Of a DNA stretch of 64,000 bases, positions 3,089 through 30,501 are shown in pieces. This stretch comes from an uncultured virus (IMG/VR IMGVR_UViG_3300027156_000007). Its lineage: Duplodnaviria; Heunggongvirae; Uroviricota; Caudoviricetes. The stretch spans positions 1 through 64,000 of IMG/VR virus record IMGVR_UViG_3300027156_000007; one strand, written 5' to 3'. How positions within the stretch are numbered: the first letter of the stretch is position 1; every line of letters begins with the position of its first letter. The position numbers were made by a program, and so were the translations under genes. The notes beneath the pieces were generated by a model. The model searched no databases. It worked only from the letters and a program-made list of their open reading frames with translations, and was not told the origin of the DNA.

Positions 3089-3380
3089 TAATTTCGCTAT
3101 CTTTAAGAGCAGAGAATTGGTGAATCATCCCTGTTGGGATATGGAAGCTATCACCTCGACCCAAGGTGATCCAGTTATTTCTTGCGGTTTTTTCATCCAT
3201 GCCATAATGCAAGACAATTTTTCCACTTTGTACATAGAAAGTTTCATCTTTTATCTTGTGATAATGAAGACTACACTTGCGATCTTTAACAACGAAAAGA
3301 ATTTTACCGCAGTACTTATCGTTATTAACTATCCACTTCTCATATCCCCAGCCTTTGGGTACAAAATGTAATTTTGACAT
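3030..3380 (-). CDS. Cupin-domain protein (sugar isomerase-like)
   Basis: PKGWGYE, SLHYHKIKDETFYVQSG and FHIPTGMIHQF cupin metal motifs. Confidence 0.8.
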   Translation of the reverse strand: MSKLHFVPKGWGYEKWIVNNDKYCGKILFVVKDRKCSLHYHKIKDETFYVQSGKIVLHYGMDEKTARNNWITLGRGDSFHIPTGMIHQFSALKDSEIIEISTQHFDEDSYRIEKGD

Positions 3381-3381
3381 A

Positions 3382-3585
3382 TTATTTTAAAAAAGATTCT
3401 ATTTTCTTTATTGTCCCGTAATTATTGTAAACATAATCAAAAATCCAATCCTCTGCCCTTTCAGGCATATCTAATTGAGAAAGCAAATTACTATATAAAG
3501 CAGTTTGCTCGTCTTCTAGTTTATTAATTTTTCTGCGCGTTTCTTTAATTAGTTCGCGCTGTTCATCAGTAAATTTCATATCCAA
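3382..3585 (-). CDS. Hypothetical protein
   Basis: 67-aa ORF, tight packing. Confidence 0.5.
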   Translation of the reverse strand: MDMKFTDEQRELIKETRRKINKLEDEQTALYSNLLSQLDMPERAEDWIFDYVYNNYGTIKKIESFLK

Positions 3586-4605: not shown

Positions 4606-4680
4606 TGGAGCCACGCTACGGAATCGAACCGTACTCTGAGGTTTACAAAACCCCTGCATCGCCGACTATGCTTGCGCGGC
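4606..4680 (-). tRNA. tRNA-Thr(UGU), CCA encoded, non-canonical core
   Basis: GCCGCGC/GCGTGGC acceptor stem, GCAT/ATGC D stem, GGGGT-TTTGTAA-ACCTC anticodon arm, TACGG-TTCGATT-CCGTA T arm, TCCA end; 75 nt. Confidence 0.9.
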
Positions 4681-8997: not shown

Positions 8998-9483
8998 TTA
9001 CACGCCTGTACTTCCAAATCCGCCCGTTCTTTCGGTTGTAGACAAAGATTCAACCTGCTGCCAATCAACAGCATGATACTTTTCAATAATTAATTGAGCG
9101 ATTCGATCTCCAGCTTTAATATTAAAATCAAAATTTGAACCAGCAATATTTGGAGTAAGTCCCATCATGCTTGCAAGATCAATACTTAGATTCATCAATA
9201 CAACTTTAACTTCTCCACGATAGCTAGAGTCTACAACGCCAGCAAGAACATCAATTCCATTCTTAACTGCTAACCCGCTGCGAGGAGCAATCCTTGCATA
9301 ATACCCTTGAGGCACTTCGATTGAAAGGCCAGTGCTAACCAAAGCGCGACTCATTGGCTTGATCCTTACGCTCTCAGTTGAATAAAGATCGTAACCAGCA
9401 TCTCCAGTTTTTTGACGAGATGGGACGATTGCCAGATTATTTAGTTTAACGAATTTAACTGGGACTATTGTTTCTATATCCAT
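8998..9483 (-). CDS. dut: dUTPase (trimeric)
   Basis: AGYDL, PRSGLA, GVVDSSYRGEV, GDRIAQL and RTGGFGSTG motifs I-V. Confidence 0.95.
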   Translation of the reverse strand: MDIETIVPVKFVKLNNLAIVPSRQKTGDAGYDLYSTESVRIKPMSRALVSTGLSIEVPQGYYARIAPRSGLAVKNGIDVLAGVVDSSYRGEVKVVLMNLSIDLASMMGLTPNIAGSNFDFNIKAGDRIAQLIIEKYHAVDWQQVESLSTTERTGGFGSTGV

Positions 9484-9932
9484 AATTGTAAATTAGATTT
9501 AATTTTAGAAAGGCTTTCGGGATTTAATTCTTTATAGTAAATTTTGTAATATTCAAATATTTCTTTGAACTTATTGCACTGATCGTATTCTTTGATATAA
9601 AATACTCTTTGTATTTCATGAGAAACTATATCTTTCGCGCAAGCGAAACAAGGGGATATTGTCAAACATATAGTATCTCCTTCTCCCTTTCTTATCAAAG
9701 ACAAAGCGTTAGTTTCTGCATGAAGCATTATTTCGCGCTTTTTCGGACGATTTTCTTCCTTCTTCATCCAGTCTTTAACAGGGAAGCCTTTTTTAAGACC
9801 ATTGTAGCCTGTTGAAATTATTCTGCCCTCTTTATTTAAAATACAAGCTCCAACCTTGGTGTGTGGATCTTCACTTCTAGACGAAGCAGCAAGAGCCATC
9901 ATGCACCCGTACTCATGCCAAGAAAGTCTCAT
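9474..9932 (-). CDS. dCMP deaminase
   Basis: RSEDPHTKVGACI, TGYNG, HAETNA and SPCFAC; start reassigned to ATG 9932. Confidence 0.9.
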   Translation of the reverse strand: MRLSWHEYGCMMALAASSRSEDPHTKVGACILNKEGRIISTGYNGLKKGFPVKDWMKKEENRPKKREIMLHAETNALSLIRKGEGDTICLTISPCFACAKDIVSHEIQRVFYIKEYDQCNKFKEIFEYYKIYYKELNPESLSKIKSNLQLWI

Positions 9933-9939
9933 GGACAAT

Positions 9940-10004
9940 ATTCTCGCTAGAGCAAAACAAAAGATCAAGTTTATTTGGACCTTTTTCTGGCATTCTTGTA
10001 TTAT
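9940..10004. promoter_or_regulatory. Divergent sigma70-like promoters at the strand switch
   Basis: Minus: TTGATC(9968-9963)-17-GAGAAT, 7 nt before ATG 9932. Plus: TTGGAC(9975)-18-TATTAT, 5 nt before ATG 10010. Confidence 0.5.
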
Positions 10005-10009
10005 TGATT

Positions 10010-10429
10010 ATGACAATCGCCGATGCTTCAATTAAATTGTACCAGTGGTATTTTAAAAATGACAGTTTTTGTGAGAATGATTTCATAAAAATTCTTGAAA
10101 TTTCTGAACAACCTGAATCTGAAAGAGCTTGCATTTTGTGCGCTCTTGAAGAATTTGAGAAAAATGGAGTAGTAAAGAAAGCTTCTTTTAATAAAGATGA
10201 TTATTGGATTCTTTCTAAGAAGTTTGATGCTTACGAACAAAATATTACAATCTCTCCTAAAACTGCTTTCGTAATCGCAGAAATTATTAATTCTTACTGC
10301 ACTTTAATTGAAAATGAATCTGAAAGATGCAACCCCGCTTCGGTCAGCGAGAAGGACATCAAGAACCTTCTGGTGATTTTCAACGAGATGCGCGAAAAGA
10401 TTTTTGACAAAACCAAAAACCCTGAATAG
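10010..10429 (+). CDS. Hypothetical protein
   Basis: First gene of the rightward block; ATG 10010 is in frame with the listed ORF. Confidence 0.6.
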   Translation: MTIADASIKLYQWYFKNDSFCENDFIKILEISEQPESERACILCALEEFEKNGVVKKASFNKDDYWILSKKFDAYEQNITISPKTAFVIAEIINSYCTLIENESERCNPASVSEKDIKNLLVIFNEMREKIFDKTKNPE

Positions 10430-10432
10430 GAT
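10404..10432 (+). promoter_or_regulatory. sigma70 promoter for the ncRNA
   Basis: TTGACA-17nt-TAGGAT; predicted +1 at 10438-10439 coincides with the first base of the long-range stem. Confidence 0.75.
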
Positions 10433-10437
10433 GAGCT

Positions 10438-10758
10438 AGTTCTTTGTCTGGGTGAATAGCCTACTGGGGATATCCCAGTTTGAACGCATCAGAGACATCA
10501 GGCCCGTAAAAAGACCCTAGTCAACTGGATCTAAGAAATCCAACGCCATTTCGGGAAAAGGCGACGTTCCGCAAGGAGAAGACTTTGAAAAGCTGAAACC
10601 TCATTTTTCTCAAAAGAAAAAGCTGGCAGTTCGTCCTAAGAGAAATCCCACCCGTGAAGACAAAGAACTTAAACAAAGAGTTAGTCATTAGCTAGGCTCT
10701 CTTGAGAGGGCCGAAAGCCTGAGAAACAGGTTGCGAAGGATTGAAATGGGTAACTCTT
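10438..10758 (+). ncRNA. Putative large structured non-coding RNA of unknown class
   Basis: 12-bp perfect closing stem AGTTCTTTGTCT(10438-49)/AGACAAAGAACT(10658-69) plus GGGTG/CACCC; multiple internal hairpins; second domain closed by AAGAGTTA(10676-83)/TAACTCTT(10751-58); lies in a 450-bp ORF-free gap with raised GC. Confidence 0.7.
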
Positions 10759-10844
10759 GATTATTTTAAAACTCTATAATTATTTTTAGAGATGACAGCC
10801 TTTTCCTATTTTAACTCAAAGAAAAATCATAAAGCTGGCAGTTC
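10619..10844 (+). repeat. 14-bp direct repeat AAAGCTGGCAGTTC (10619-10632, 10831-10844)
   Basis: Exact repeat read from the sequence. Confidence 0.7.
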
Positions 10845-10846
10845 TC

Positions 10847-10875
10847 TTTACAAACACATTTCTTCTAGATACTAT
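10847..10875 (+). promoter_or_regulatory. sigma70-like promoter (leaderless)
   Basis: TTTACA-17-TACTAT, 8 nt before ATG 10884. Confidence 0.6.
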
Positions 10876-10883
10876 GTTTTATT

Positions 10884-11516
10884 ATGTCTAACTTATTCCT
10901 AGGAATTGCTGGTGCTGCAACTGTAGGTAAGGATACTTACTATAGATTACTAAAACAGATTTGCTCAGAAGAGTTTGGAGTTAATGTAATAAGATTTGCT
11001 CTGGCTGATTCATTAAAGAATGATTTATATTCTTTGATCTTATATAAATACGGAGTTGACATTTTTAATTGTTCTACTGAAGATAAGAATAAAGTAAGAC
11101 ATCTGTTAGTAAGTCACGCTAGAGTAATGCGTCAAAATACTAAAGGAAGATATTGGATAGATAAGCTTCAGTCTGAAATTGAAGACTATAAGAAATCTGA
11201 AAATTTTAAACCTTCAGATATTTTTTGTGTAACAGATATTAGACACTTCGAATATTTAAAAGACGAAGTTGTCTGGCTAAAGGAAGAAAATAAAGGAGTT
11301 TTAATTTATGTTGAAAAATATTTTTCAGACGGTTCAATTTGCAATCCTGCGAACGCTGACGAAAGCAGAAATGATCCCGCTCTTAGAGAACATTGCGATT
11401 ATCTGCTTCGTTGGATGCACGGATCTGACGAAGAGATTTTAAAAATTTCCGTCAAAAAAAGTATTGACAACTTGATAAAACAAGGTAAGCTTTACACACA
11501 TGATAGACTCAACTGA
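10884..11516 (+). CDS. dNMP kinase-like P-loop protein
   Basis: GIAGAATVGKDT P-loop, FALADSLK and VTDIRH motifs. Confidence 0.75.
   Translation: MSNLFLGIAGAATVGKDTYYRLLKQICSEEFGVNVIRFALADSLKNDLYSLILYKYGVDIFNCSTEDKNKVRHLLVSHARVMRQNTKGRYWIDKLQSEIEDYKKSENFKPSDIFCVTDIRHFEYLKDEVVWLKEENKGVLIYVEKYFSDGSICNPANADESRNDPALREHCDYLLRWMHGSDEEILKISVKKSIDNLIKQGKLYTHDRLN
11464..11491 (+). promoter_or_regulatory. sigma70-like promoter (leaderless sigma gene)
   Basis: TTGACA-16-TAAGCT, 8 nt before ATG 11500. Confidence 0.55.
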
Positions 11517-12087
11517 TAACGAACTTGTAGCGAAGGTAAAACTTCATCAATGCAACCAATCATTAAAGACTCTGATAGACAGGCACTCTCCTCTCTGTTT
11601 TGATATCTTTAAAAAATATAATAAGATTCTTCAAGAAAGAGGCGTAAGCCCAGAAGATCTTGCGAATGAAAAAGATTACATAATTTACAAATGTACTCTT
11701 AACTTTGACGAAACTCAAAATAGCAAATTCTCAACTTGGCTTGCCAACCATGTTAAATACAAATGCTTAACAAACATTACTAAACACAAGTGGACTCTTT
11801 CTATAGACGATGAAAATCAAAAGAATCTTGTAGCAAATCTCAGTCAAGACTCAAATGATTTTGAAGAGAAGAAGGAATATATATTTAATCTCCTTTCTCA
11901 AATGAAAGATAAACGACTGGAGAAGATTATTATGTTGAGATACTATGGAGACAAACCTTCTCGTAAGTGGAAGAATATTTCAAAAGAACTAGGCGTAACT
12001 TACCAGACGGCAATCACTTTACACAAAAAAGCCCTTGAGTTCTTGAAAACAAAAATAGAGAGTAAAGAAATGCAAGATTTCGTGTAA
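11500..12087 (+). CDS. Phage RNA polymerase sigma factor (sigma70 family, regions 2 and 4)
   Basis: FDETQNSKFSTWLANHVK (region 2.3-2.4-like) and C-terminal HTH WKNISKELGVTYQTAITLHKKAL. Confidence 0.8.
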   Translation: MIDSTDNELVAKVKLHQCNQSLKTLIDRHSPLCFDIFKKYNKILQERGVSPEDLANEKDYIIYKCTLNFDETQNSKFSTWLANHVKYKCLTNITKHKWTLSIDDENQKNLVANLSQDSNDFEEKKEYIFNLLSQMKDKRLEKIIMLRYYGDKPSRKWKNISKELGVTYQTAITLHKKALEFLKTKIESKEMQDFV

Positions 12088-16313: not shown

Positions 16314-17264
16314 ATGAGAATAGCAATTCGTGCAGAAGGTGGTTTAGGGGACGTTTTATTATTCAATAGATTTGTCCCAGCCATTAAAGAGAAGTATCCT
16401 AATTCGGAAATATCTCTTTATATAGACAGCGAAGGAAAAACTTTCCAAAAAGAAGTTGTTGAATATTTATATCCTTCATTCTATAAGGAAATTAAGGTAA
16501 TCCCCAGAAAGAAATATAAGCCATTTTTTATTGATTCTCAGTTTGGAACAGAAAATCAAATTGGCTTTATTGAAAATGTTCCTGATGATATAAAACAGGA
16601 AATTGAAGCTCATGATCTATGGTACGATGGGCATATTGATTCTTTGAATTGGATCAATTATGACTTTGATTGGTACAAGTACTTTAGATTTTTTCCAAGT
16701 CCAGACATTAAGCCAGTTAATGATTCTGGAGATTATATAGTTTGCCATCTTGTTTCAACGACATCTAAAGAACATATGATGTCTAAATGGTATATTTCAA
16801 GTCTCATCAGTAAGCTAAAAGAGTTAAATAAGAAAATAATTATTATCTCTACTCCTGAAATAAATAATAACTACGATCTTTTTAACTCTGACCCTCAGAT
16901 AGAAATAGTAAATAAACCAATTAAAGAAGTTTGTGACATTATTTATAATGCAAAACTTTTTATTGGCACTGATAGCGGATTTAGATACGTTGCTTACGGA
17001 TGCTCCGTTCCAGTCATTACATTCTCAAAGCAGTCTCAGTCTGCTCATCAAGTATTGCCAAGTCATTACATAAGGTGGCTTATTTTCCCAGAACTAACTT
17101 TCCCGCTGTCTTTTGACTTTAATTATATTTCTAGATTAGCTGGCAAAATTTTGCAGAACAAAGGATACTCTTTGGTTCCATACCTACAAGACTTTGATTC
17201 TCAAGCAGTTAGGAGAACATATAAAGTAAACTCAGAAAAAAGTATTATCAACAATGATCATTGA
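16314..17264 (+). CDS. GT9-like (heptosyltransferase-fold) glycosyltransferase
   Basis: GGLGDVLL N-terminal motif and FIGTDSG. Confidence 0.75.
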   Translation: MRIAIRAEGGLGDVLLFNRFVPAIKEKYPNSEISLYIDSEGKTFQKEVVEYLYPSFYKEIKVIPRKKYKPFFIDSQFGTENQIGFIENVPDDIKQEIEAHDLWYDGHIDSLNWINYDFDWYKYFRFFPSPDIKPVNDSGDYIVCHLVSTTSKEHMMSKWYISSLISKLKELNKKIIIISTPEINNNYDLFNSDPQIEIVNKPIKEVCDIIYNAKLFIGTDSGFRYVAYGCSVPVITFSKQSQSAHQVLPSHYIRWLIFPELTFPLSFDFNYISRLAGKILQNKGYSLVPYLQDFDSQAVRRTYKVNSEKSIINNDH

Positions 17265-18093
17265 TGCATTTCCATACGCTAATGAAGAGTTAGTATTAAC
17301 AATAAGATTAAATGAATTAGCACCAGTTGTTGATTATTTTTTAATTGTAGAGTCTAATAGAACTCAAACGGGTTTACCAAAACCATATTATTTCGAACAA
17401 TCACAGGCAAAATTTGAAAAATTTTTAGACAAGATTGTTTATATTAAACTAGATCATTCTTATTTAAATAAAGTCGAAGAAGCTGATTGGTCGCAAGAGT
17501 TTCGTGTAAGACAAGCTATTGTATCAGAAGGATTAGTTAAAATAAATCAAATCAAAGCTCTTTCTAACGAAGACTATATCATAGTTAGCGATTGTGACGA
17601 AATCCCAAGAGCAGAAGTAATAAAAGAGCTTACAGCAAAGAACACAGAGTATATTTCTATCAATCATTACTTTAATACTTACTATTTTAATCTTTATTCT
17701 AAATTCAGAGACCCTTGGGGTTGGTATGGTTCTGTGTTGCTCAAACTAAAGTATTTAACCCAATACGAAGTTCAATACATAAGAAATATTAAAGACAAAC
17801 TTCCCCATACTGGCAATTCTGGTGAAGGGTGGCACTTTAGTAATATTCTTGTTAATGGTTTTGATTCTTTATATTCTAAATGGATCAACAATATTGAACC
17901 TCATGATAAATCATGCCTTAAAGACAAAGAGCTTTTAAACAAGCAATTTAATAAATGTCTTTATGAGGATGATCATTTCTTTTATTGCGATATGCCAAAT
18001 AAAAGAGATATTCCTTTATTAAAGCTAGATGATAGTTTACTACCAAAATACATAATCGACAATCAAGAAATTTTCAAAAACTTACTATGCTAA
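17254..18093 (+). CDS. GT17-like glycosyltransferase
   Basis: IIDAF, IRLNELAPVVDYFLIVESNRTQTG, VSDCDEIP and GWHFS. Confidence 0.8.
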   Translation: MIIDAFPYANEELVLTIRLNELAPVVDYFLIVESNRTQTGLPKPYYFEQSQAKFEKFLDKIVYIKLDHSYLNKVEEADWSQEFRVRQAIVSEGLVKINQIKALSNEDYIIVSDCDEIPRAEVIKELTAKNTEYISINHYFNTYYFNLYSKFRDPWGWYGSVLLKLKYLTQYEVQYIRNIKDKLPHTGNSGEGWHFSNILVNGFDSLYSKWINNIEPHDKSCLKDKELLNKQFNKCLYEDDHFFYCDMPNKRDIPLLKLDDSLLPKYIIDNQEIFKNLLC

Positions 18094-18860
18094 CTTTTCA
18101 AGAAGCTTGCAGTTTAACAATAGGAATTCATCTAAGCGGACCCGGATTAGGGGATAATTTGATTTTGTCTTCTTTGCCAGAAAACTATTTTAGAAACACT
18201 GGAAAGAAACTAATCGGAGATAAGAGTAATCCTATTTTTCAAAATAATCCTTATGTCGATTCTGGCCCAACTCCTGACGCATGGTTTACTCATCAGCAGA
18301 TCTGCGATGAAACCTCTTACTTTGTAAGAACTCTTAAAAAAATTCATCCTCACCCTTCCATCCCTTACGAGCATTGCCAATTCTTTTCTTTGCCAAAATG
18401 TTATTTAAGACATTCAAGATTGTATATCCATGAAGATTTAAAAACTGTTCAGAATAAGGTTTGCGTACATACCAGCGGCAAGTCTTCTGGAACTCTATCT
18501 GAAGAGATTATTGAACGTATAGAAAATAACTATAAAGACTATCACTTGGTTCAAACAGGAGGCAAAGCAGATAGAAAAGTTAAATCAGCAGAAGACAAGA
18601 CTGGACTGAGTATGCTAGACACTGCTAAAGAAATAGCAGAAGCAGCAATTTTTATAGGAGTAGACAGCGGAGCAGGTTATCATGTTGCAAACTGCTACCC
18701 AAAAGTTAGAAAGAAATTAATTATTAATTACTTTACCGAGGATCAGTTTGAAAAGTTAAGCCCATTATATGGTGATGCTCCTTGGTGGGATTTTAATATT
18801 GAAACTTATAATCCTTTTGATTACGATGTAGGATGTTCAATGAGTTATTTAAAAATATGA
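18087..18860 (+). CDS. GT9-like glycosyltransferase
   Basis: GLGDNL, NNPYVD, VQTGG and FIGVDSG. Confidence 0.7.
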   Translation: MLTFQEACSLTIGIHLSGPGLGDNLILSSLPENYFRNTGKKLIGDKSNPIFQNNPYVDSGPTPDAWFTHQQICDETSYFVRTLKKIHPHPSIPYEHCQFFSLPKCYLRHSRLYIHEDLKTVQNKVCVHTSGKSSGTLSEEIIERIENNYKDYHLVQTGGKADRKVKSAEDKTGLSMLDTAKEIAEAAIFIGVDSGAGYHVANCYPKVRKKLIINYFTEDQFEKLSPLYGDAPWWDFNIETYNPFDYDVGCSMSYLKI

Positions 18861-19774
18861 AAAATTTGTACCTGTGCGGGATAACCTCAAACGAGGAAGA
18901 AAAAATATCAGACCTAATAGATTCAACAAAAGCGTTTTTTGATGGATATGTCTGGTGCGTAGATTCTAATTCAAATAGCGATTCTACTTATAATCTTCTT
19001 GACTCTAATAAAGGTAAAGGAAAAATCGTCAGACATCCTTGGGTTAATGCTCATGACTGGCAAGCAAATGAATGGCTCTATTCTGGAATCTTTGAAGAAG
19101 GAGACTGGTGCTTCATTGCTGACTCAAGTGAGAAGCCAACTGAAGAGTGGTGCAAGAACATGAAGTCAATGATTCTTGGCTTTGAAAAAGACGGCATCGA
19201 AGCAGTTTACTGTTCTGGTAGACCATTTTTATTTAAATGGAATCCTTATCTATTTTTCTTTTTAACTCCACATTGGTCTCTACAAGGATTAAACGGCAAA
19301 GCAGCGACCATTCCAGAAGACAAGAAGAAAAACTTTATAATAAACAAAAGAGACCTAAATCCTGCCAAACATTATCAAGAACACGATACTAAATATTATC
19401 TTTATGGAAGGAATAATCAAATAGAGGCATTTTATAGCAAGTACGGTCAAGAAATAGTTAAACATCACGAAGTATTGCGTAGAGAATTCAGAAAGAATTT
19501 AATAAAAAGAGGGTTTGATCCAAGCATAAAAGGAATAACAGAATTTTTCCAAAAAGGAGAATTTACAGAGTTTGATAAGAATATGATTGAGTTTGAGTTT
19601 TGCCTTTCTGAATTTTATCAAAGAGTTATTCTTGGCATGGACTTCATGAAAGAAATAGCTTCAAGAAGATACAAATGGTCTTTCTCGGGTTTCTTAAAAA
19701 CTGGTGATGGATTTAGCGACCCATCATACGAAGGGACAATTTTAAAATATAATAAGAAGTATCTTTCTCTATGA
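18857..19774 (+). CDS. Putative GT-A glycosyltransferase
   Basis: GITSNEE, VDSNSNSDST and FIADSSE GT2-like pattern; start at ATGA overlap 18857. Confidence 0.5.
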   Translation: MKNLYLCGITSNEEEKISDLIDSTKAFFDGYVWCVDSNSNSDSTYNLLDSNKGKGKIVRHPWVNAHDWQANEWLYSGIFEEGDWCFIADSSEKPTEEWCKNMKSMILGFEKDGIEAVYCSGRPFLFKWNPYLFFFLTPHWSLQGLNGKAATIPEDKKKNFIINKRDLNPAKHYQEHDTKYYLYGRNNQIEAFYSKYGQEIVKHHEVLRREFRKNLIKRGFDPSIKGITEFFQKGEFTEFDKNMIEFEFCLSEFYQRVILGMDFMKEIASRRYKWSFSGFLKTGDGFSDPSYEGTILKYNKKYLSL

Positions 19775-20613
19775 AATTTCTTGTTGATAGAGATCCAGCA
19801 GACACTTTGCTTCTAAGAAAGATATGCATTGATACTCTTTGCATAGATGTAATCGAAAAGACTAATTCTAATTTATTCTGCGGGGTTTATATAGAAGGCA
19901 GAAACAGGGAAATAAACACCATAGAAGATGAAGCTGCATTTCGAAGTTTTAAAATATTTTCTCAAAATAACTACCCTTACTTTGTCCTAAGCCCAAATGG
20001 AGAAAATCTATTTAATAATAATCCAGAATATAAAAAAAGTAGAGCCTACCATATTAAAATACCAGAGTTAAACTCTCACGATTCGTATTCTCAATTTATG
20101 ATAAAACATCTTTGGGATTATATACCTGAAGAGTTTCATAAAATATTATTTTTTCACCCAGACGGATTTCTGATAAAAGAAGGCTGGGAGCAGTTTGTTT
20201 TAGATGGTCAAATAGATTACATTGGCAGTGCTTGGTGTCACACCCCAAGAATAGAAATTCTTCATGAAGGACAATGGAAGTTAATAAATCTTCCTGCTAT
20301 ACAATGTGGCAATGGCGGGTTTAGTTTTAGGAATAGATTAGCGTGTGAAGAAATAAGTAAAAACTTTTCTCATTTTACCATGAGAGAGTACGGAAGGACA
20401 GACAATAGACCGCCTCCAGAAGATTTATTCTATTCTCATCTTATTAATGGAACGGTTAAAAATAGCAGAGTTGCAGGATTAAAAGACTGCATGAAATTTT
20501 CTCTTGATCCTTTAACTCTACAAGAGTATAATAAAAAAGCGAGTTTTGGATTTCATCACCCCAAAAAAATTAACGAATTTCAAAACTACAGAGATTATTT
20601 TTTAAACCTCTAA
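19771..20613 (+). CDS. DUF5672-like (GT-A related) protein
   Basis: FHPDGF, DYIGSAW, GNGGFSFRN, PEDLFY and FGFH. Confidence 0.75.
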   Translation: MKFLVDRDPADTLLLRKICIDTLCIDVIEKTNSNLFCGVYIEGRNREINTIEDEAAFRSFKIFSQNNYPYFVLSPNGENLFNNNPEYKKSRAYHIKIPELNSHDSYSQFMIKHLWDYIPEEFHKILFFHPDGFLIKEGWEQFVLDGQIDYIGSAWCHTPRIEILHEGQWKLINLPAIQCGNGGFSFRNRLACEEISKNFSHFTMREYGRTDNRPPPEDLFYSHLINGTVKNSRVAGLKDCMKFSLDPLTLQEYNKKASFGFHHPKKINEFQNYRDYFLNL

Positions 20614-20614
20614 T

Positions 20615-21463
20615 ATGTCTTCTAAGAAAATAGCAATCCTAGGTGCGGGGTCTTCTGTTGCTAAAGGCATCTTAGAGGAATTGAATGGCAAAGGACATGA
20701 TCTAGAAATCTTTTATCGCAAAGATTTAGATGTTACTAATTTATCCAGCCTTAAAGACAAGTTCAAAGACAAGTATTATGATTTAGTAATTCATTGCGCT
20801 ATGTCTGGTACAGGAAGATTTTATGCAGAAGACTCTGCTCAAAACTTCTATGAAAATATCATAATGCAAGAGAACTTATTTTTTCTTGAGAATCATTATT
20901 CTAATTTGATCATATTTAGTTCTGGGGCGCAGAACTCTAGAAAAATAAATGTCATAGATCTAGAAGAAGGCGAGTTCAATGAGCCAACAAGTAACTTCTA
21001 TTCTCTTGCTAAATACGTCAATGCTAAAAGGGCAATTGGAAACGATAAGGTTATAAATTTAAGAATCTTTAATGCTTTTACGCATTTTGAAAAAGATAAC
21101 AGATTCATTAAAAATAATATTTTCAAATATCTAAAAAAACAACCTATTGAAATCTGGGGAGACGCTTTCTTCGACTTTTTTTACGCTAATGATATTTGCA
21201 AAGTAATAGAGTACTTTATTCAAAATCCAAGCAAGTCTTATTGTGAACTAAATTTAGTATACGATGAGAAATATAAACTTTCTGATATCGCTAACATAAT
21301 AAATTCTCTTTCCAATCACAAGGTTGAAATAATTATCAAGCAAGGAGAGAATAAACATTATACTGGCAATGGTAAAAAATTAAACTCTTTGAATTTAAAT
21401 TTCGAAGGCTTACATCAGGGAATAATTAAAACTTTTAACGTATTAAAAAATGAGTCAATTTAA
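20615..21463 (+). CDS. NAD-dependent epimerase/dehydratase/reductase (SDR)
   Basis: ILGAGSSVA Rossmann start, VIHCA, FSSGA, YSLAK (YxxxK) and LRIFN. Confidence 0.8.
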   Translation: MSSKKIAILGAGSSVAKGILEELNGKGHDLEIFYRKDLDVTNLSSLKDKFKDKYYDLVIHCAMSGTGRFYAEDSAQNFYENIIMQENLFFLENHYSNLIIFSSGAQNSRKINVIDLEEGEFNEPTSNFYSLAKYVNAKRAIGNDKVINLRIFNAFTHFEKDNRFIKNNIFKYLKKQPIEIWGDAFFDFFYANDICKVIEYFIQNPSKSYCELNLVYDEKYKLSDIANIINSLSNHKVEIIIKQGENKHYTGNGKKLNSLNLNFEGLHQGIIKTFNVLKNESI

Positions 21464-22766
21464 AGAAGACATCCGCAGTTTTATTCTATCGTTACAAGAG
21501 AAGTCAGGTAGACTTCCAAAATTCTGCCACAATCTCAATGGAGCAGAGAACAAGGTATATTATTCTGGAGCCTACTTTGATGAAAATGAATTAGTCGCCG
21601 CAATAGATACACTACTTTTTGGCAAATGGTCATCAAGCGGAGAAGTATGCGCTCAATTCGAAGTGCAGTTTAGTAAGTACATTAATCAAAAACATTCATT
21701 CTTTACGAACTCCGGTTCTTCAGCGAACCTTCTATTGATCGCTGCCTGTAAAGAGTACTTTAAGTGGCAAGATGGAGACGAAATAATTGTCTCAGCAGTA
21801 GGATTCCCAACAACGGTTTCTTCAATTATTCAGAATGGGTTGAAGCCTATTTTTATTGATATAGAATGGGACACTTTAAATTTTGATCTTAATCTAATTT
21901 CTTCAAAGATTAATTCTAAAACTAAAGCTATCTTCTTGTCTCCTGTACTTGGAAATCCGCCAAACATAGACGCTTTAAATTTTATATGCGATAAGCATAA
22001 CGTCAAACTGCTATTGGACAACTGCGATTCTCTAGGTACTAAATGGAATAACAAATTTCTCAATGAGTACGCCGTAGCTTCATCATGCTCATTTTATCCA
22101 GCGCATGAAATAACCACTCTTGAAGGAGGTATGGTGTCTTCAAACATTGAAGATATTGTTCAGCTTGCCAGAAGTTATGGCACATGGGGCAGAGACTGCT
22201 GGTGCGTAGGAACCTGTAATCTCCTTCCAAATGGTTCGTGCGGCAAGAGATTCTCTAGTTGGCTAACTGATTTTCCAGACACTATCATTGACCACAAATA
22301 TGTATTTAATAGAATTGGATATAATTTGAAGCCTTTAGACTTGCAAGGAGCCATTGGCATAGAGCAACTTAAAAAACTAGACTATATTTGCTCAACTCGT
22401 TTGCAAAATCAAAAAACTATTTCTTCATTATTTAAAACTTATGTTAATGATCTAAGATGCCCTAACGTGCTTGGTGATACATCTTGGGTTCCATTTGGGG
22501 TGCCTTTGATCTGTTCAAACAAAGACCAAAAAGTAAAACTAGTTTCTTTCTTAGAAAAGAATGGTGTTCAAACTAGAAATTACTTTGCTGGAAATCTATT
22601 GATGCACCCCGGATACAGACATCTTGATAACTTTTTAGACTATCCAGAAAGCAATAAAGTCTTAGATCTAGTATTCTTTGTAGGCTGCGCCCCTACTATT
22701 TCAGAATCAAACGTAAACTATATAGAGAAAGTTCTTCAAGCATGGAAATTACAAGAACAGATCTAG
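21450..22766 (+). CDS. rfbH: CDP-4-keto-6-deoxyglucose 3-dehydratase-like (RfbH/DdhC, DegT family)
   Basis: NSGSSANL, DNCDSLG, SFYPAHEIT (His at the PLP-Lys position), Fe-S motif GRDCWC...CGKRF and TRNYFAGNL. Confidence 0.85.
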   Translation: MSQFKEDIRSFILSLQEKSGRLPKFCHNLNGAENKVYYSGAYFDENELVAAIDTLLFGKWSSSGEVCAQFEVQFSKYINQKHSFFTNSGSSANLLLIAACKEYFKWQDGDEIIVSAVGFPTTVSSIIQNGLKPIFIDIEWDTLNFDLNLISSKINSKTKAIFLSPVLGNPPNIDALNFICDKHNVKLLLDNCDSLGTKWNNKFLNEYAVASSCSFYPAHEITTLEGGMVSSNIEDIVQLARSYGTWGRDCWCVGTCNLLPNGSCGKRFSSWLTDFPDTIIDHKYVFNRIGYNLKPLDLQGAIGIEQLKKLDYICSTRLQNQKTISSLFKTYVNDLRCPNVLGDTSWVPFGVPLICSNKDQKVKLVSFLEKNGVQTRNYFAGNLLMHPGYRHLDNFLDYPESNKVLDLVFFVGCAPTISESNVNYIEKVLQAWKLQEQI

Positions 22767-23266
22767 GAATCCTTATAATAAAAACAGACTGTTTCTTTGA
22801 TGAAAGAGGCTTCTTTGCCGAAATCTTTAACGATAAAAGGTACAAAGAGCTTGGTTTTAATCATAAATTTTTACAAGACAGTATATCTGTTTCTAAATAT
22901 GGCGTAACGAGGGGCTTACATTTTCAAAAAAAGCCCAAAGCTCAAGGAAAGTTAATCCAAGTCCTCAAAGGAGAAATATTTGATGTTGCCGTAAATATCA
23001 ATAAAAATTCTCAGAACTTTGGAAAACATGAAGCATTTTTTCTAACAAGAGGAATGCAGATTTTTATTCCAGACGATTTCGCTCATGGATTTCAAAGCCT
23101 ACAAGACGATTCAACTATTATTTATAAGGCTACAAACGTTCATTCAAAAGAACATGAATGCACGATTATGTGGAATGACCCTCTTTTAAATATTAAATGG
23201 CCTATTAGCAATCCAATAATATCTCAAAAAGATTTACACACAGGAATTAAATTATCAAAACTATGA
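22742..23266 (+). CDS. rmlC: dTDP-4-dehydrorhamnose 3,5-epimerase family
   Basis: DERGFF, RGLHFQ, QGKLIQV, FDVAV and FAHGFQSL. Confidence 0.9.
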   Translation: MEITRTDLGILIIKTDCFFDERGFFAEIFNDKRYKELGFNHKFLQDSISVSKYGVTRGLHFQKKPKAQGKLIQVLKGEIFDVAVNINKNSQNFGKHEAFFLTRGMQIFIPDDFAHGFQSLQDDSTIIYKATNVHSKEHECTIMWNDPLLNIKWPISNPIISQKDLHTGIKLSKL

Positions 23267-25245
23267 GTAACATTAAAACTTTAAATTTCAATGGAGAAAA
23301 GTTAGCCTTATTTACTTTCATTGATCCAAGCAATAGAGACATGGAGGTAACTAATTGGCACCATAAAGTTCATTCTTTTCTTGGCATTCCAATTAATTAT
23401 TTTCAAATAGACTACAGACTTATTAATCACGGAGGAGCAATGGAAAAGTCTATTGCTCTGTTTAAAAATCAAGTTGATTATTTTTGTTTTATAGATAACG
23501 ACTGCTTGCTTCTTAGAAAAGAGGTGCCACAAGAAATATATGAAAAACTAAAAGATAAGAAAACAATCTTTGGTGGATGCCAAAATTCTAATCACATCCA
23601 TATAAATCCAACTCACCCATTTGTACAACCTAGTTCATTCTGTATCTCGACCAAGCTTTATGAAACTCTTGGAAATCCTCATTTAGGGGATTACATAAAA
23701 AGATCTGATACTTGCGAAGAGGCTACTTGGCTATGCCAAGAAAACGGTTATACCGTTTGCATGGTTTATCCATCTCATTATAATGAACTAACGGACGAAG
23801 AATGTAGTTCAAGCGGAAATCCAAAGAGATGGAGACTCACAGATACTTTATATTATGGTCTTGGAACTACATACGGCGATACTTTTTTCCATGCAGGAAT
23901 GCAAGGATTACCAAGAAGCAAACAGGTCTTTATTAATAAATGTAAAGAAGTTCTTAGTAAAGGCAAAAAATGTTTAGAGGGAGTTATTACCTGCGTTGGA
24001 TATGGAGACATCTTAGAACTTACGCTGCCTAAAAATAAAAAACACTTTGATAACCTAATTGTAGTTACAGATCTAAAAGATTCTAGAACAAAAGATGTTT
24101 GTGACAGAAACGGCGTAAACTGTATTCAAAGCGATATCTTTTATTCTAAAGGAACTATATTTAATAAAGGAGGAGCTATAAATTTAGCTTATGCCAATTT
24201 AAGATATTTTGATTGGTGTATAAATTTGGACGCAGATATCATCCTTCCTGACAATTTTAGACATTCGTTCATGGCGCATGATTTAGATGAAAACGAACTA
24301 TACGGTGCGCCAAGAAAGTTTGTTTGGAATTACGAACAGTATAAAAAACTAGAAGACAATGTTTTTCTAGACGAGGAACTTTTAACTTTAGATGGTATTG
24401 GAGTTGGGTATTTCCAAGCGTTTAACTTTAAATCTAATAAAATAAAACATCTTCCTAAAAATAAATTATACTCAGATAGTAACACGGCAGAACAGGTAGA
24501 CATTGAATTTTTGTATAATTTTTATCCACCTCCCTCTCCAAAGGTTCCAAGAATGTTTTTTGATGTAATACATCTAGGGCCACCCGGAGTATTCAATAAT
24601 CTAAAACTAAATTCAAAACTAGCCTCTTTGAAAGGATTAGAGTTTAAAGATTTTCCAAATGTAAATGATGACGAGTTCTTTAAAGACTATCCTGATATTT
24701 ATAATCATAAGAACAAGCCAGAACAAAAGTATAATCAATACTATAAATATTTCAAAAACTCAATCAATCATAGAGATTTCGTCTTTAGAATGTGCTTGGA
24801 TAAGCTGAATAAAAAGCCAGCCAAGATCCTAGAGATAGGAACATCAAGAAGTCTAAACGGCAAAGCTGGTGACGGTTGGTCAACTTTGTTTTGGTGCGAA
24901 TATGTGGCTCAGTATGGCGGCGAACTGAATGTTTGTGATGTTGATCAAGCAGCAATAAACGTAAGCAAGCTGCTGACTGAAAATTATCATAGTTCAATAA
25001 ATGTAAATTTCTTCTGTGAAGATGGAATTAAGTATATAGATAATACTTATGATTTAATTTTCTTAGACGGATCTGATTGCCCGTATCAGATGTTGGAGCA
25101 GTTTGAAAAAATCGACAGAACAAAAACTATAATTCTATGTGATGACTTCCATGTAAAAGGAACAGTTGTAAGAGAAAAATATAAGGACTTTAAGTTAATT
25201 AAAGTAAACGAAATACACGAAATGGCAATCTACAACAAAATCTAA
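23263..25245 (+). CDS. Multidomain protein: two GT-A-like domains plus class I methyltransferase
   Basis: FIDNDC and NLDADI DxD motifs; C-terminal ILEIGT...LIFLDG...ILCDD. Confidence 0.65.
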   Translation: MSNIKTLNFNGEKLALFTFIDPSNRDMEVTNWHHKVHSFLGIPINYFQIDYRLINHGGAMEKSIALFKNQVDYFCFIDNDCLLLRKEVPQEIYEKLKDKKTIFGGCQNSNHIHINPTHPFVQPSSFCISTKLYETLGNPHLGDYIKRSDTCEEATWLCQENGYTVCMVYPSHYNELTDEECSSSGNPKRWRLTDTLYYGLGTTYGDTFFHAGMQGLPRSKQVFINKCKEVLSKGKKCLEGVITCVGYGDILELTLPKNKKHFDNLIVVTDLKDSRTKDVCDRNGVNCIQSDIFYSKGTIFNKGGAINLAYANLRYFDWCINLDADIILPDNFRHSFMAHDLDENELYGAPRKFVWNYEQYKKLEDNVFLDEELLTLDGIGVGYFQAFNFKSNKIKHLPKNKLYSDSNTAEQVDIEFLYNFYPPPSPKVPRMFFDVIHLGPPGVFNNLKLNSKLASLKGLEFKDFPNVNDDEFFKDYPDIYNHKNKPEQKYNQYYKYFKNSINHRDFVFRMCLDKLNKKPAKILEIGTSRSLNGKAGDGWSTLFWCEYVAQYGGELNVCDVDQAAINVSKLLTENYHSSINVNFFCEDGIKYIDNTYDLIFLDGSDCPYQMLEQFEKIDRTKTIILCDDFHVKGTVVREKYKDFKLIKVNEIHEMAIYNKI

Positions 25246-25252
25246 TTATTAA

Positions 25253-26248
25253 ATGATAATAGCAAACATAGAGCTTTCTGAAAACGAAGACTATTCTCCA
25301 TTTCATTCTAAAAGATACGGAGGCGGATCTGTTTTTGGCAAATATGCTTTGCCATTATTAAATAATCAAGAAACCAAATTCTATATCTATGGTAGACCTA
25401 AAAACTTTGAAAACGTTACTGAAGAAGAGGGCAAGTCAAATTGCATTGAATTAACTAACGAACAAGTAAAACTTCTTAAACAAGGCTATCCAGTAGCTAG
25501 AATAATTCCTAACGCTGACCGATGGGATATTATCGTTCACAATCAAGAGTCTTTTGCGTTTAATACACAAGGGTTAAAATGCAAACAGGTATGCTGGCTT
25601 GCTTTTGTAAACCAAACTATCTGGCCCTTAAATGATGCTGGATTTGTGTATTCTTATAATCAAAATCCAATTCTTGATCCTAATAGAACTAAATTAATGA
25701 AAGTTCAGATAGGAACTTTTGTACCCGAGTCATTTCAAGAATACGCAAAAGAAGACTATTTGTTCCAAGTAACAAGAATGGATTCTACAATGAATCCTAT
25801 TAAAACAGTTAAACTTTGTAATAAATTTAAGATAAAAGGATATTTTGCGGGTCCAATTCTAAATAACTACCCACTATTGCAGCATATAGATAATGAAAAT
25901 ACTTTTTATATGGGAGTCTTGACTGAACAAGAAAAAATTAAAATGCTCAAAGGAGCTAGGCTCTTTGGTGGAATCCAAGATTGGGATACAATATGGAATT
26001 TAAGCTGCCATCAATCTTTAGCATACAACACTCCTTTAGTTTGTTATAAGCGTGGATTCTTTAATGAATTAATAGAAGACGGCGTAGATGGATTTTACTA
26101 TAATGATAACGAAGACTCTTTCTTTGAAATATGGGAGAAAAGCAAGAAGATTAAGCAACAAGATTGCTACAAAAAAGCTTTAAAATTTTCAGAAAAAGAA
26201 ATGGTCAATAGTTTTTATCAAAATTTTAGAAAATTATTAAACGTATGA
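25253..26248 (+). CDS. GT4-like glycosyltransferase
   Basis: YGGG, FAGPI and SLAYNTPLV...ELIEDGVDGF C-terminal GT-B pattern. Confidence 0.7.
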   Translation: MIIANIELSENEDYSPFHSKRYGGGSVFGKYALPLLNNQETKFYIYGRPKNFENVTEEEGKSNCIELTNEQVKLLKQGYPVARIIPNADRWDIIVHNQESFAFNTQGLKCKQVCWLAFVNQTIWPLNDAGFVYSYNQNPILDPNRTKLMKVQIGTFVPESFQEYAKEDYLFQVTRMDSTMNPIKTVKLCNKFKIKGYFAGPILNNYPLLQHIDNENTFYMGVLTEQEKIKMLKGARLFGGIQDWDTIWNLSCHQSLAYNTPLVCYKRGFFNELIEDGVDGFYYNDNEDSFFEIWEKSKKIKQQDCYKKALKFSEKEMVNSFYQNFRKLLNV

Positions 26249-27069
26249 AAATAGTAGCTCTAATAGTTTGTGATGACCATTTATATTCTGGCGGCTACAA
26301 AACAATTAACTCTTTAAAACACTTCAACCCAAATATAGAAGTTGCGCTATATAACACAAAAGAAATACAAAGAGTAAAACAAAAGCACAGAATACCTGAC
26401 AATCTTTGGTTTTCTGCTCCTTTCTTTTGTTACGATTACATAGAAAAAAATGATAAACCAGATATTTTAATTAAACTAGGAGCCGATTGTATTGTACTAG
26501 ATAATATAGAAGAAATTCTAAATCTAAATTATGATGCAGCTTCTGCTAGAAATGACCCAGATCAAGTTGGAGACAGATACGAAAAACATAATCGACCAGA
26601 TATAATAAGAGATATTCCTAATCATGAATGGGTTAATGCCGATTTCGTTTGTATTAAGAATTTTGCCTTTTTAAGAGATTGGCTACTATTAACTGATGAC
26701 TATAAAGAAGGTAGGAGAGTAGCATTAAATAAATATGGCAAGATTTACGCTGGAGATGATATGTCATCTTTAAACGTAGTTTTTAGAAATTATGGGTATA
26801 ATACTTTAATTCTTGATCCAAAAGGTTCAGATAAAATATATGGCTCTAGCGGAAACTGGAGTTACAGCATTTCAAACTGGGATAACTGGAAAGAGATTTA
26901 TTTTAATGGACAAAAAAGTATAATGCCAGATGGAGGTAGAGGAACTGGAGATAGACAAATAAAGATTTTACATCAAGGTGGAGGAACTTGGGATCAGAAG
27001 CTAAACTTTAATTTATTTAATGAAGAGTTTAGGAAGCATATACGACTAGTAACAAAATATGAAAATTAA
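26245..27069 (+). CDS. Putative GT-A (GT8-like) glycosyltransferase
   Basis: LGADCIV, VNADFV, DDMSSLN and ILHQGG. Confidence 0.55.
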   Translation: MKIVALIVCDDHLYSGGYKTINSLKHFNPNIEVALYNTKEIQRVKQKHRIPDNLWFSAPFFCYDYIEKNDKPDILIKLGADCIVLDNIEEILNLNYDAASARNDPDQVGDRYEKHNRPDIIRDIPNHEWVNADFVCIKNFAFLRDWLLLTDDYKEGRRVALNKYGKIYAGDDMSSLNVVFRNYGYNTLILDPKGSDKIYGSSGNWSYSISNWDNWKEIYFNGQKSIMPDGGRGTGDRQIKILHQGGGTWDQKLNFNLFNEEFRKHIRLVTKYEN

Positions 27070-28829: not shown

Positions 28830-28834
28830 GTTAA

Positions 28835-30495: not shown

Positions 30496-30501
30496 TAGTC
30501 T

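Follow-up and report, generated by a model that had tools for sequence, protein, structure and literature searches.

OLE and raiA-motif RNAs come from chromosomal genes of bacteria (Firmicutes and Actinobacteria), and OLE works with partner proteins encoded nearby. According to PMC12286853, which also mentions OLE and its protein partners, ROOL and GOLLD are carried by phages and prophages, in many cases close to tRNA islands, have no known function and assemble into RNA-only multimeric cages; the ROOL named there has 659 nt, and many of its GOLLD RNAs more than 800 nt. From IMG/VR intergenic regions, 10,006 candidate structured RNAs have been predicted by covariation (Fremin, Bhatt, Kyrpides 2023, PMC10690425).

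The RNA family described here ('type 1') has the features of such large 'ornate' phage RNAs. It resembles ROOL and GOLLD in being several hundred nucleotides long (>300 nt), with many covarying helices and pseudoknots, phage-encoded and apparently a separate RNA with its own transcription unit, and in having no known protein partner or function. It is smaller than they are (about 410 nt), their Rfam models do not recognise it even with E raised to 10, and its setting is A+T-rich aquatic phages with a fixed neighbour gene, apparently in place of tRNA islands. A tRNA directly follows the RNA in one of the 16 homologue loci scanned (the L053/L141 contig), and the only tRNA of the window is 5.8 kb away. 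Type 1 is also like OLE and raiA-motif RNAs (large, highly conserved, pseudoknotted, found by comparative analysis), but it shows no Rfam match to them and 0 real relatives among the first 120 genome-contig matches listed.

The locus and its homologues

The window, i.e., the whole 64,000-nt stretch analysed, covers positions 1-64,000 of IMG/VR record IMGVR_UViG_3300027156_000007 (Caudoviricetes, uncultured virus). Its sole internal stretch of at least 200 nt uncovered by ORFs of at least 80 aa is 10430-10883 (454 nt), as expected from the initial annotation, which had pointed to a single large ORF-free gap of about 450 bp. The other uncovered stretch, 59145-64000, is a single ORF running past the window end. 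Features in and around the gap are as follows.

10010-10429, + strand: winged-helix protein gene, 139 aa, fold predicted by AlphaFold2, accompanying the RNA
10404-10432, + strand: sigma-70-type promoter TTGACA-17-TAGGAT (10/12), overlapping the end of the upstream gene
10438-10846, + strand: whole conserved type 1 RNA element, from nhmmer profile, covariation, strand bias and lack of a conserved ORF
10438-10454, + strand: 5′ strands of P1 (10438-10449) and P1b (10450-10454), partners 10658-10669 and 10649-10653
10463-10479, + strand: hairpin A, ACUGGG-GAUAU-CCCAGU
10496-10499, + strand: PK-B 5′ strand CAUC, partner GAUG 10791-10794
10503-10506, + strand: PK-A pseudoknot 5′ strand CCCG, partner CGGG 10552-10555 in the hairpin C loop
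10519-10584, + strand: predicted three-way junction of P3 (AGUC 10519-10522/GACU 10581-10584), hairpin B (10526-10542) and hairpin C (10543-10567)
10604-10632, + strand: module 1, hairpin E (UUUUUCU-CAAA-AGAAAAA, 10604-10621) plus repeated-word copy 1 AAAGCUGGCAGUUC (10619-10632)
10644-10669, + strand: PK-C 5′ strand AAUCC (10644-10648) and 3′ strands of P1b (10649-10653) and P1 (10658-10669), from covariation
10676-10758, + strand: domain 2, with outer stem AAGAGUUA/UAACUCUU, inner hairpins and PK-C 3′ strand GGAUU (10738-10742) in an internal loop
10759-10790, + strand: A+U-rich linker (GAUUAUUUU...), the least conserved stretch
10791-10846, + strand: 3′ tail, with PK-B 3′ strand GAUG (10791-10794), tail box (GACAGCC..., 10793-10809) and repeated-word copy 2 (10831-10844)
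10847-11516, + strand: downstream unit, promoter-like TTTACA-17-TACTAT (10847-10875), then a dNMP-kinase-like gene (10884-11516)

Stretch 10438-10846 (+) is very probably the gene for a real structured non-coding RNA of an uncatalogued family. The nhmmer profile runs end to end in 75 entries of IMG/VR phage contigs, corresponding to 34 distinct sequences, of which 32 were scored for covariation using MAFFT columns plus window-based duplex searches (P1 and the P3 of the window's group were judged by the duplex searches, outside column scoring). The 58 proposed pairs in 12 helices are 95.6% paired in these 32 sequences against 28-45% with partners slid, and 38 of the 58 show compensatory changes on both sides, the outcome sought by a check proposed in the initial annotation. 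On all five covariation measures 0 of 500 shuffles reach the observed value, although the family was gathered by one locus-based sampling and all members share one gene neighbourhood, so that relatedness inflates one shuffle control. G-U outnumbers A-C by 148 to 21 on the + strand of the type 1 relatives and the RNA is therefore assigned to this strand. Identity reaches 92-100% in the core and 94-100% in the tail versus 76-95% in neighbouring genes, and the 32 sequences have no ORF in common by position or strand, two of them lacking any ORF of at least 25 aa. Folding energy was another of the proposed checks: the single-sequence MFE fold of the window RNA is only marginally better than shuffles (z −2.08 on the + strand) and not strand-specific (−2.18 on the − strand).

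It is extremely improbable that the stretch holds no RNA feature and is instead a DNA-level element (binding or recombination site) or a small protein gene. Copies of a repeated word (see below) could be protein-binding sites on DNA and there is a 55-aa ORF on the − strand (10521-10688), but this ORF is not kept in relatives, the stretch is present in RNA libraries, and both readings face the compensatory changes and the 7-to-1 excess of G-U over A-C on one strand only.

Searches for known RNAs agree with the earlier failure to match the element to tmRNA, RNase P, 6S or introns. At gathering score, Rfam 15 returned only a tRNA (4609-4680) for the whole window; with E up to 10, region 10300-10950 gave four chance-level rows, none in the RNA core; and 16 homologue loci, with E up to 1, gave one tRNA and one snoRNA-model row (E 0.38). 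No Rfam 15 match was found to ROOL, GOLLD, OLE, raiA, 6S, RNase P, tmRNA, group I/II introns or self-cleaving ribozymes, and the tmRNA search by ARAGORN reports only tRNA-Thr (4606-4680). The Fremin et al. catalogue shares with our analysis its data source (IMG/VR) and kind of evidence (covariation), and its candidates may include type 1, whole or in part; four type 1 motif strings were not found in six supplementary files of PMC10690425, and no RNA beside a kinase or sigma gene is mentioned in its main text. In the search for cultured relatives, BLASTN of the window RNA and of the L060 RNA against 50,697 phage records returned no match, nor did tblastn with the winged-helix protein, and the RNR and glycosyltransferase gave distant matches only. 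As for bacterial copies, a 16-mer pattern matched at least 120 genome-contig stretches, and for none of the 120 listed did nhmmer find a match beyond the pattern.

Architecture of the RNA

The fold predicted by comparative sequence analysis is compact. P1/P1b close a core that holds a three-way junction; a second hairpin domain follows, and then a 3′ tail. Core (10438-10669), hairpin domain (10676-10758) and tail (10791-10846) are predicted to be held together by three or more long-range helices (PK-A, PK-B and PK-C), which are 97.7-100% paired with compensatory changes in each. PK-A (100% paired) changes from C-G to U-A in 3/32 sequences (L047, L058, L139), the middle pairs of PK-B (97.7%) occur as CG:19/AU:12 and AU:21/UA:10, and PK-C (100%, covariation in 3/5 pairs) is found as AAUCC/GGAUU, AGUCC/GGACU, AGUUC/GAACU and AGUCA/UGACU. 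None of the three had been proposed in the initial annotation.

The 12-bp stem that had been described there (P1, 10438-10449/10658-10669), extended by GGGUG/CACCC (P1b, 10450-10454/10649-10653) across a 4-nt bulge, is present in both the sequence and the MFE fold. P1 forms at least 5 bp in all 32 relatives, in 20 distinct versions, and beats 95% of shuffles in 19 of them; P1b is 99.3% paired. Several further helices recognised from the window alone, namely ACUGGG/CCCAGU, GGAU/AUCC, UUUUUCU/AGAAAAA, AAGAGUUA/UAACUCUU and GGCU../..GGCC, are likewise kept in relatives with compensatory changes. Hairpin A is 89.5% paired with 5/5 pairs changed on both sides, hairpin B 96.8% with covariation in 5/5 pairs, the hairpin C stem 100% with covariation in 2/3 pairs, and hairpin E 93.7%. 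In domain 2, 9 of 11 pairs are changed on both sides (95.5% paired), and its outer stem occurs in 20 distinct versions.

Other elements stood in part. GCCU/AGGC is 97.6% paired, without a double change; CGCC/GGCG is 92% paired but conflicts with a better-supported 3-bp stem. The window's own 4-bp P3 (AGUC/GACU) is by itself no better than shuffles (p about 0.5) and the window's group is misaligned there, whereas other groups form 6-7 bp at this position, in 15 distinct versions, with 6/6 pairs covarying; a covariance model from which the window's group was left out recovers window positions 10483-10576 with 75.7 bits (E 1.5e-13). UCC-GCAA-GGA (10568-10577) and CCUG-AGAAA-CAGG do occur, though only in the window's own group. 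The four-way junction once suggested gives way to a three-way junction plus a hairpin limited to that group. Weak, too, are AGCU..AGCU and the pairing of the repeated word (below) with the strand in front of hairpin E (3/32 beat shuffles).

Single-stranded joints GUAAAAAGAC, UUUCGGGAAAA and AAGUCC are near-invariant (invariant alignment columns). Such joints, together with size and pseudoknots, are typical of catalytic or ligand-binding cores, and the RNA might be a ribozyme, self-processing or otherwise catalytic, whose pseudoknotted core is the active site and whose repeated modules are processing sites. We consider this very unlikely, as there is no Rfam 15 ribozyme match even at E up to 10, RNA-library contigs traverse core and domain 2 without joint or break, and no substrate is evident.

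Linker 10759-10790 has no BLASTN match in L022, L025 and L027, where the flanking parts match at 84-98%, and is possibly a weak termination point. The tail beyond it pairs into the core, and the covarying unit measures about 410 nt (10438-10846), not the 230-320 nt ending at 10758 that had been estimated. What held of the original interpretation is a discrete, promoter-driven, multi-domain RNA of a class outside Rfam 15; size, ends and junction had to be revised.

The repeated word is present in two exact copies in the window, one in the core and one in the tail; neither it nor the tail box occurs elsewhere there, which rules out a dispersed motif. A 12-18-nt word is common to core and tail in 31/32 relatives, in at least nine versions, with both copies changing together. 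Pairing between tail box and repeated word is possible in 83% of cells for copy 1 and 79% for copy 2 versus 7-57% with partners slid, with one covarying pair. Tail pairings with AAUAGC or with the purine run of hairpin E, judged by eye, are not kept across groups. Between tail box and copy 2, the largest group carries a terminator-like hairpin (GAAAGCC..GGCUUUC) that is missing from the window's group and from more distant members, and in many loci the DNA after copy 2 is A+T-rich.

Transcription and the downstream unit

A promoter-like site for the host sigma-70 polymerase is conserved at a fixed distance before the RNA. TTGACA-17-TAGGAT, described from the start as near consensus, scores 10/12 and is the best of 10 promoter-like sites in 9500-11500 (shuffles: mean 5.9 sites). 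Relatives have a TTGNNN −35 and a TAnnnT −10 at the same distance from the first base of the RNA, scoring at least 8/12 in 22/32 relatives and 10/12 in 8/8 members of the window's group.

The stretch is found in RNA libraries; the initial annotation had put forward metatranscriptomes as one check, to locate the RNA's ends. Part of the stretch is present in 24 sequencing runs, 18 of them recorded as RNA, and in 4/4 river RNA libraries from four studies contigs span 10453/10465 to 10716/10918 at a depth of 8.5-18.9, bearing in mind that RNA libraries may contain DNA. This support consists of assembled contigs, which give neither ends, strand nor level. The contigs begin no more than 13 nt apart and show no loose end at that point, which hints only weakly at a 5′ end. 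Three of the four stop at 10716-10767, before the tail, so the tail required for PK-B may be missing from the abundant RNA species. Elsewhere in 9800-11800 contigs are absent or short and of low depth, although absent cover proves nothing and depth cannot rank genes.

One contig, X1, from a relative strain, spans 10460-10918 and thus runs from the RNA into the kinase gene (10884-11516; phrog_139, E 3e-12), so read-through into this gene, and hence a cis role, is possible. The RNA would then be a cis-acting leader, the long 5′ part of a kinase-sigma-SSB transcript controlling read-through as a riboswitch or as a put/EAR-type processive antiterminator, with the tail switching between the two repeated-word copies. 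Such a leader would fit the finding that an early-type promoter precedes type 1 and a co-oriented operon follows it in 12/12 loci, the bridging of RNA and kinase start by X1, the terminator-like hairpin of the largest group, and the usual switch logic of two identical strands competing for one partner. Even so, we regard it as unlikely. Neither the window's group nor the more distant members have the terminator-like hairpin, no alternative pairing that disrupts it was found, and put and EAR elements are far smaller than the ~400 nt, with three long-range helices, seen here. A 5′ UTR without intervening promoter or gene is also not what the loci show: promoter-like sites lie just before the kinase start in the window and, as TTGACA/TTGACT-type sites between RNA and kinase gene, in L047, L058 and L053, the last with a tRNA additionally in between. 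These separate kinase promoter-like sites, the L053 tRNA and an opposite-strand gene after a second RNA (type 2, below) lead us to read the RNA as an independent unit.

The winged-helix neighbour, the type 2 RNA and possible function

The winged-helix gene lies directly upstream in 12/12 type 1 loci examined. Of 80 kinase loci, 51 encode a homologue of it, and a type 1 or type 2 RNA accompanies 50 of these 51, a linkage that may simply reflect inherited gene order. The 139-aa protein belongs to no Pfam or PHROG family and its profile search gives 52 relatives, none with a name. AlphaFold2 predicts H-E-H-H-E-E plus two long helices (pLDDT 91.9), the best Foldseek rows being the DNA-binding MecI/BlaI repressors, weakly (E 8e-3), with no Foldseek match against PDB at E ≤0.001 and low-score leads only from the ESM Atlas.

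In other phages an unrelated-looking ~400-nt structured RNA, type 2, occupies the same slot after the winged-helix gene. Like type 1, it measures about 400-450 nt (e.g., L071 2328-2770), has covarying helices and a separate sigma-70-like promoter located where the winged-helix gene ends, and repeats a purine-rich word close to the 3′ end; a short box, (C)UAUGUUCU, is common to both. In contrast, no similarity in sequence or core structure is detectable: nhmmer between the types gave no match in one direction and two negative-score matches (E 8.7 and 9.6) in the other, and the type 1 core covariance model found nothing in 33 other loci (best E 2.1). A single family comprising both was discarded on these grounds. 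The gene following type 2 is on the opposite strand in L039, L042, L046, L054 and L079. New here are the core/tail word changing together and the occurrence of type 1 and type 2 RNA in one slot.

As a whole, a large structured RNA acting in trans as a folded particle is the best explanation we can offer, and we give it about an even chance. By analogy, the RNA would work as a particle, RNA-only or with protein, as is thought for ROOL and GOLLD, and would be distinct from any leader of the next gene; that it is trans-acting rather than a cis-regulator or an origin RNA is a judgement we likewise hold at roughly even strength. In the most speculative step, the stem-loop module of the core and the tail copy would be two equivalent docking sites for one sequence-specific partner, the 3′ strands of the two modules apparently staying identical within each phage; alternatively, they could form a dock/undock switch for the tail. 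Candidate partners would be the upstream winged-helix protein or a second copy of the RNA, and that any one named partner is the right one is unlikely at best.

An origin role draws on the wider setting. Gene orientation switches from − to + at the RNA locus, cumulative GC skew along the 64-kb window is lowest there (−0.87, bin 9001-11000), and neighbouring genes concern nucleotide metabolism and DNA: dUTPase, dCMP deaminase, the dNMP-kinase-like gene and class II RNR. The RNA could thus be an R-loop or primer at an origin beside an origin-binding winged-helix protein, copy 1 pairing with template DNA at copy 2. In ColE1, an upstream segment of RNA II is coupled to the DNA close to the origin, and a sense-strand repeat co-varying between RNA body and downstream DNA, as base-pair guiding requires, would suit such a role, as would the A+T-rich DNA after copy 2. 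Nevertheless we think it about as improbable as the leader. GC skew tracks gene orientation here and is not independent evidence for an origin; the phage encodes its own DnaB-like helicase, DnaG-like primase and Pol III alpha, so a primer made by RNA polymerase is not required; heavily conserved tertiary pairings and single-stranded A-rich joints are unexpected of a primer; and contigs deeper than those of neighbour genes suggest a stable product, within the limit that contig depth cannot rank genes.

We also speculate that the winged-helix protein and the RNA might form a new phage ribonucleoprotein, in which copy 1 guides to an identical DNA or RNA site (copy 2) at the locus end, as an RNA-guided step either in the firing of an origin or in the control of early genes. 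Type 1 and type 2 would then be two unrelated scaffolds recruited to the same protein and slot; this is a long shot.

It is rare to meet a large RNA of intricate fold that has no known role, and each of ROOL, GOLLD and OLE has held structural surprises. Type 1 comes with experimental starting points, namely 34 natural variants, a covariation-backed structure with three long-range helices, a defined promoter, presence in environmental RNA libraries and a constant protein neighbour. Two features offer a direct way in to its function: the repeated word, whose core and tail copies vary in concert, and the seemingly unrelated RNA that takes this slot in sister phages. As the family shows, protein-based annotation misses conserved RNA genes in abundant aquatic phages.

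A conserved, covarying RNA gene ahead of the kinase-like gene

When ORFs of at least 80 aa are considered, 10430-10883 is the sole internal stretch of at least 200 nt left uncovered in the 64-kb window, as the initial annotation had stated; the other stretch listed is a single ORF of 1618 aa that continues beyond the window edge. G+C content is 0.43-0.47 in the gap vs 0.27-0.33 in the genes just downstream. The near-consensus promoter proposed there, TTGACA-17-TAGGAT (10404-10432), holds up, scoring 10/12 and ranking first of 10 promoter-like sites in 9500-11500 (shuffle mean 5.9 sites), and the proposed 12-bp stem (10438-49/10658-69) with its GGGUG/CACCC extension can be read in the sequence and also forms in the minimum-energy fold. 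The folding energy of the window RNA is only marginally better than that of shuffles and does not differ between strands (z −2.08 on +, −2.18 on −); one sequence by itself is thus weak proof, and the argument depends on relatives.

Relatives were gathered via the downstream dNMP-kinase-like gene (10884-11516, + strand), giving 13 and then 80 IMG/VR loci, and further loci were added by a 16-nt pattern scan. BLASTN of 10380-10900 returned gap identities of 97.5-99% in close relatives (flanks there 90-95%), 87-91% where the kinase protein is 71-79% identical, and 62-68% over query positions 58-290 in phages with a kinase only 31-39% identical, an interval that is exactly the core closed by helix P1. 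The A+U-rich linker (10759-10790) had no BLASTN match in L022, L025 and L027, three of the relative loci. By segment, the core (92-100% identity) and the tail (94-100%; 10791-10846) compare with 76-95% for four neighbouring genes, and no reading frame in the RNA is kept among relatives. An nhmmer profile of this element, hereafter type 1 (10438-10846), gave full-length matches in 75 entries representing 34 distinct sequences, of which 32 were aligned (L174 and L176, both cut by contig ends, were omitted). Cultured phage records gave no match to the RNA or its locus, none being close to the window, and in bacterial and archaeal genomes the 16-nt pattern gave no real relative among the 120 matches listed. 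The promoter recurs as a TTGNNN −35 and a TAnnnT −10 at constant distance ahead of the first base of the RNA, with a score of at least 8/12 in 22 of the 32 relatives and of 10/12 in all eight members of the window's group.

The first helix set was obtained with RNAalifold and a column-pair scan, and others were added by comparing sequence groups.

Helices and long-range pairings of the type 1 RNA (window positions, all + strand)
10438-49/10658-69: P1 (fold and window-based duplex search)
10450-54/10649-53: P1b (fold)
10463-79: hairpin A
10519-22/10581-84, 10526-42, 10543-67: three-way junction of P3, hairpin B and hairpin C
10604-21: hairpin E
10676-10758: domain 2
10503-06/10552-55: PK-A, long-range, CCCG with CGGG in the hairpin C loop
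10496-99/10791-94: PK-B, long-range, CAUC with GAUG in the tail
10644-48/10738-42: PK-C, long-range, AAUCC with GGAUU in domain 2

Across the alignment, the 58 pairs making up 12 helices reach 95.6% pairing, vs 28-45% with 3′ partners slid by 1-3 columns, and 38 of them carry changes on both sides. In 500 shuffles the observed values were never reached, a control that ignores relatedness; the slid control accounts for it, while favouring a structure derived from these same sequences. PK-A is 100% paired, with C-G replaced by U-A in three sequences; PK-B is 97.7% paired (CG:19/AU:12 and AU:21/UA:10) and PK-C 100%, in four compensated versions. P1 cannot be scored by columns because the alignment register shifts; the window-based duplex search found it in every one of the 32, with 5-12 bp and in 20 distinct versions; 19 sequences beat 95% of shuffles. 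The window's own 4-bp P3 is no better than shuffles. Some inner helices of the initial annotation fared less well: GCCU/AGGC shows no double change in relatives, CGCC/GGCG clashes with the better-supported hairpin C stem, and two hairpins exist but are confined to the window's group. G-U outnumbers A-C (148 vs 21 among 1822 pairing cells), and the RNA is therefore read from the + strand. A junction-region covariance model from which the window's group was excluded matches 10483-10576 with 75.7 bits (E 1.5e-13). Type 1 is an RNA gene, conserved and pseudoknotted, whose helices covary and which has a promoter-like site of its own; we give almost no credence to an element that is not RNA.

A repeated word in core and tail

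The word AAAGCUGGCAGUUC has two sites in the window and no third: 10619-32, just past hairpin E, and 10831-44, in the tail. In 31 of 32 relatives a word of 12-18 nt is common to both sites (shuffled tails reach at most 7-12), and it varies among groups in at least nine versions, e.g. AAAGGAUAAGCAGUCA, AAAGGCUGACAGUCAA and AAAAGACUAGUGGUC. Since the preceding purine run is duplicated as well, the hairpin E module appears to be repeated in the tail; the largest group has an extra terminator-like hairpin inserted into that repeat.

Complementarity points to a tail box as pairing partner common to both copies: its GAC(N)GCU is able to base-pair with the AGC(N)GUC segment in the word, and paired cells make up 83% for copy 1 and 79% for copy 2, vs 7-57% when slid, with only one covarying pair. 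L047 and L058 show a perfect fit for copy 1 and a mismatch for copy 2. Secondary structure gives no reason for the identity of the two distant copies, which may be two sites for one sequence-specific partner, a switch by which the tail docks and undocks, or a case of copy 1 pairing with copy 2 DNA.

Gene neighbourhood and presence in RNA libraries

The RNA sits in a block of dCMP deaminase (−), 139-aa protein (+), RNA, dNMP-kinase-like protein, sigma factor, DUF736/SSB-like protein and glycosyltransferase, kept in 12 of 12 type 1 loci examined. Neither Pfam nor PHROG has a family for the 139-aa protein (10010-10429). AlphaFold2 predicts it confidently (pLDDT 91.9) as a winged helix with two long helices after it; MecI/BlaI repressors are its best, weak PDB matches, and its 52 relatives in public genome and metagenome protein collections are all unnamed.

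The kinase gene has a promoter-like site of its own (TTTACA-17-TACTAT, 10847-10886 region) ending 8 nt ahead of the ATG, an arrangement shared by L047, L058 and L053; judged from this spacing, the kinase mRNAs of all four may be leaderless or nearly so. The single tRNA of the window is a tRNA-Thr (anticodon TGT, 4606-4680, −). Farther along (16314-34575 and 35292-42561) lie a long run of genes for sugar modification (glycosyltransferase family 17, two DegT-type aminotransferases, GDP-mannose 4,6-dehydratase) and then a bacterial-type replisome set (DnaB-like helicase, DnaG-like primase, Pol III alpha subunit).

The cumulative GC skew of the window reaches a minimum at 9-11 kb. On that basis the RNA may lie near a replication origin and might act there as an origin RNA together with the winged-helix protein; however, gene orientation flips from − to + at the same place, which confounds the skew, and we regard such a role as unlikely.

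Part of 10300-11000 is contained in 24 public runs, 18 of them on record as RNA. Four river metatranscriptome runs, from four studies, were examined and each holds a contig on the RNA.

River metatranscriptome contigs (window positions; depth 8.5-18.9)
10460-10918: relative strain
10465-10750
10458-10767
10453-10716

As these are assembled contigs, they establish presence in RNA libraries and not ends, strand or level. Their starts fall within 13 nt, with no loose end there, only a weak hint of the 5′ end of the RNA. The 10460-10918 contig runs on into the kinase gene, as a cis leader or antiterminator of the kinase-sigma operon would; this reading we also consider improbable, to a similar degree as the origin RNA.

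Other RNA candidates in the same slot and a possible role in trans

Of the 80 kinase loci, 51 encode a homologue of the 139-aa protein: 25 with type 1, 25 with a different RNA candidate (type 2) and one, L067, with neither.

Type 2 RNA candidate (about 400-450 nt, after the winged-helix gene)
L071 2328-2770, equal to L011 1828-2270
Further loci: L030, L031, L032, L038, L039, L040, L042, L046, L049
Further loci: L050, L051, L054, L056, L061, L074, L076, L079

Type 2 has its own sigma-70-like promoter site, a folding (MFE) z-score of −4.09, covarying helices (e.g. GACCAUU/GAUGGUU) and a terminator-like hairpin (CCCCC..GGGGG) with a purine-rich word, repeated and specific to type 2, on its flanks. 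It has no Rfam match, and neither nhmmer nor a covariance model found similarity to type 1. Several of the sister phages with type 2 have the following gene on the opposite strand, and therefore type 2, at least, is not a leader. In L067, a 379-nt ORF-free gap (3100-3480) follows a TTGACA site, with G+C 0.45 vs 0.36 for the locus; from its composition and position it may hold a third RNA type.

No Rfam 15 family matches type 1, in agreement with the uncatalogued class first proposed. It may be listed, without a name, among the 10,006 candidate structured RNAs catalogued from IMG/VR (PMC10690425). That type 1 is a ribozyme seems more doubtful still than a leader or origin RNA. In L053, alone among 16 homologue loci scanned, a tRNA gene (3365-3440, equal to L141 1159-1231; 71.6 bits) lies between RNA tail and kinase promoter; in this one relative the arrangement is reminiscent of the tRNA neighbourhood of ROOL and GOLLD, ornate phage RNAs. 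Those two are described in PMC12286853 as encoded by phages, of unknown function and assembling into RNA-only cages. We infer, at roughly even odds, that type 1 would likewise act in trans as a folded particle.
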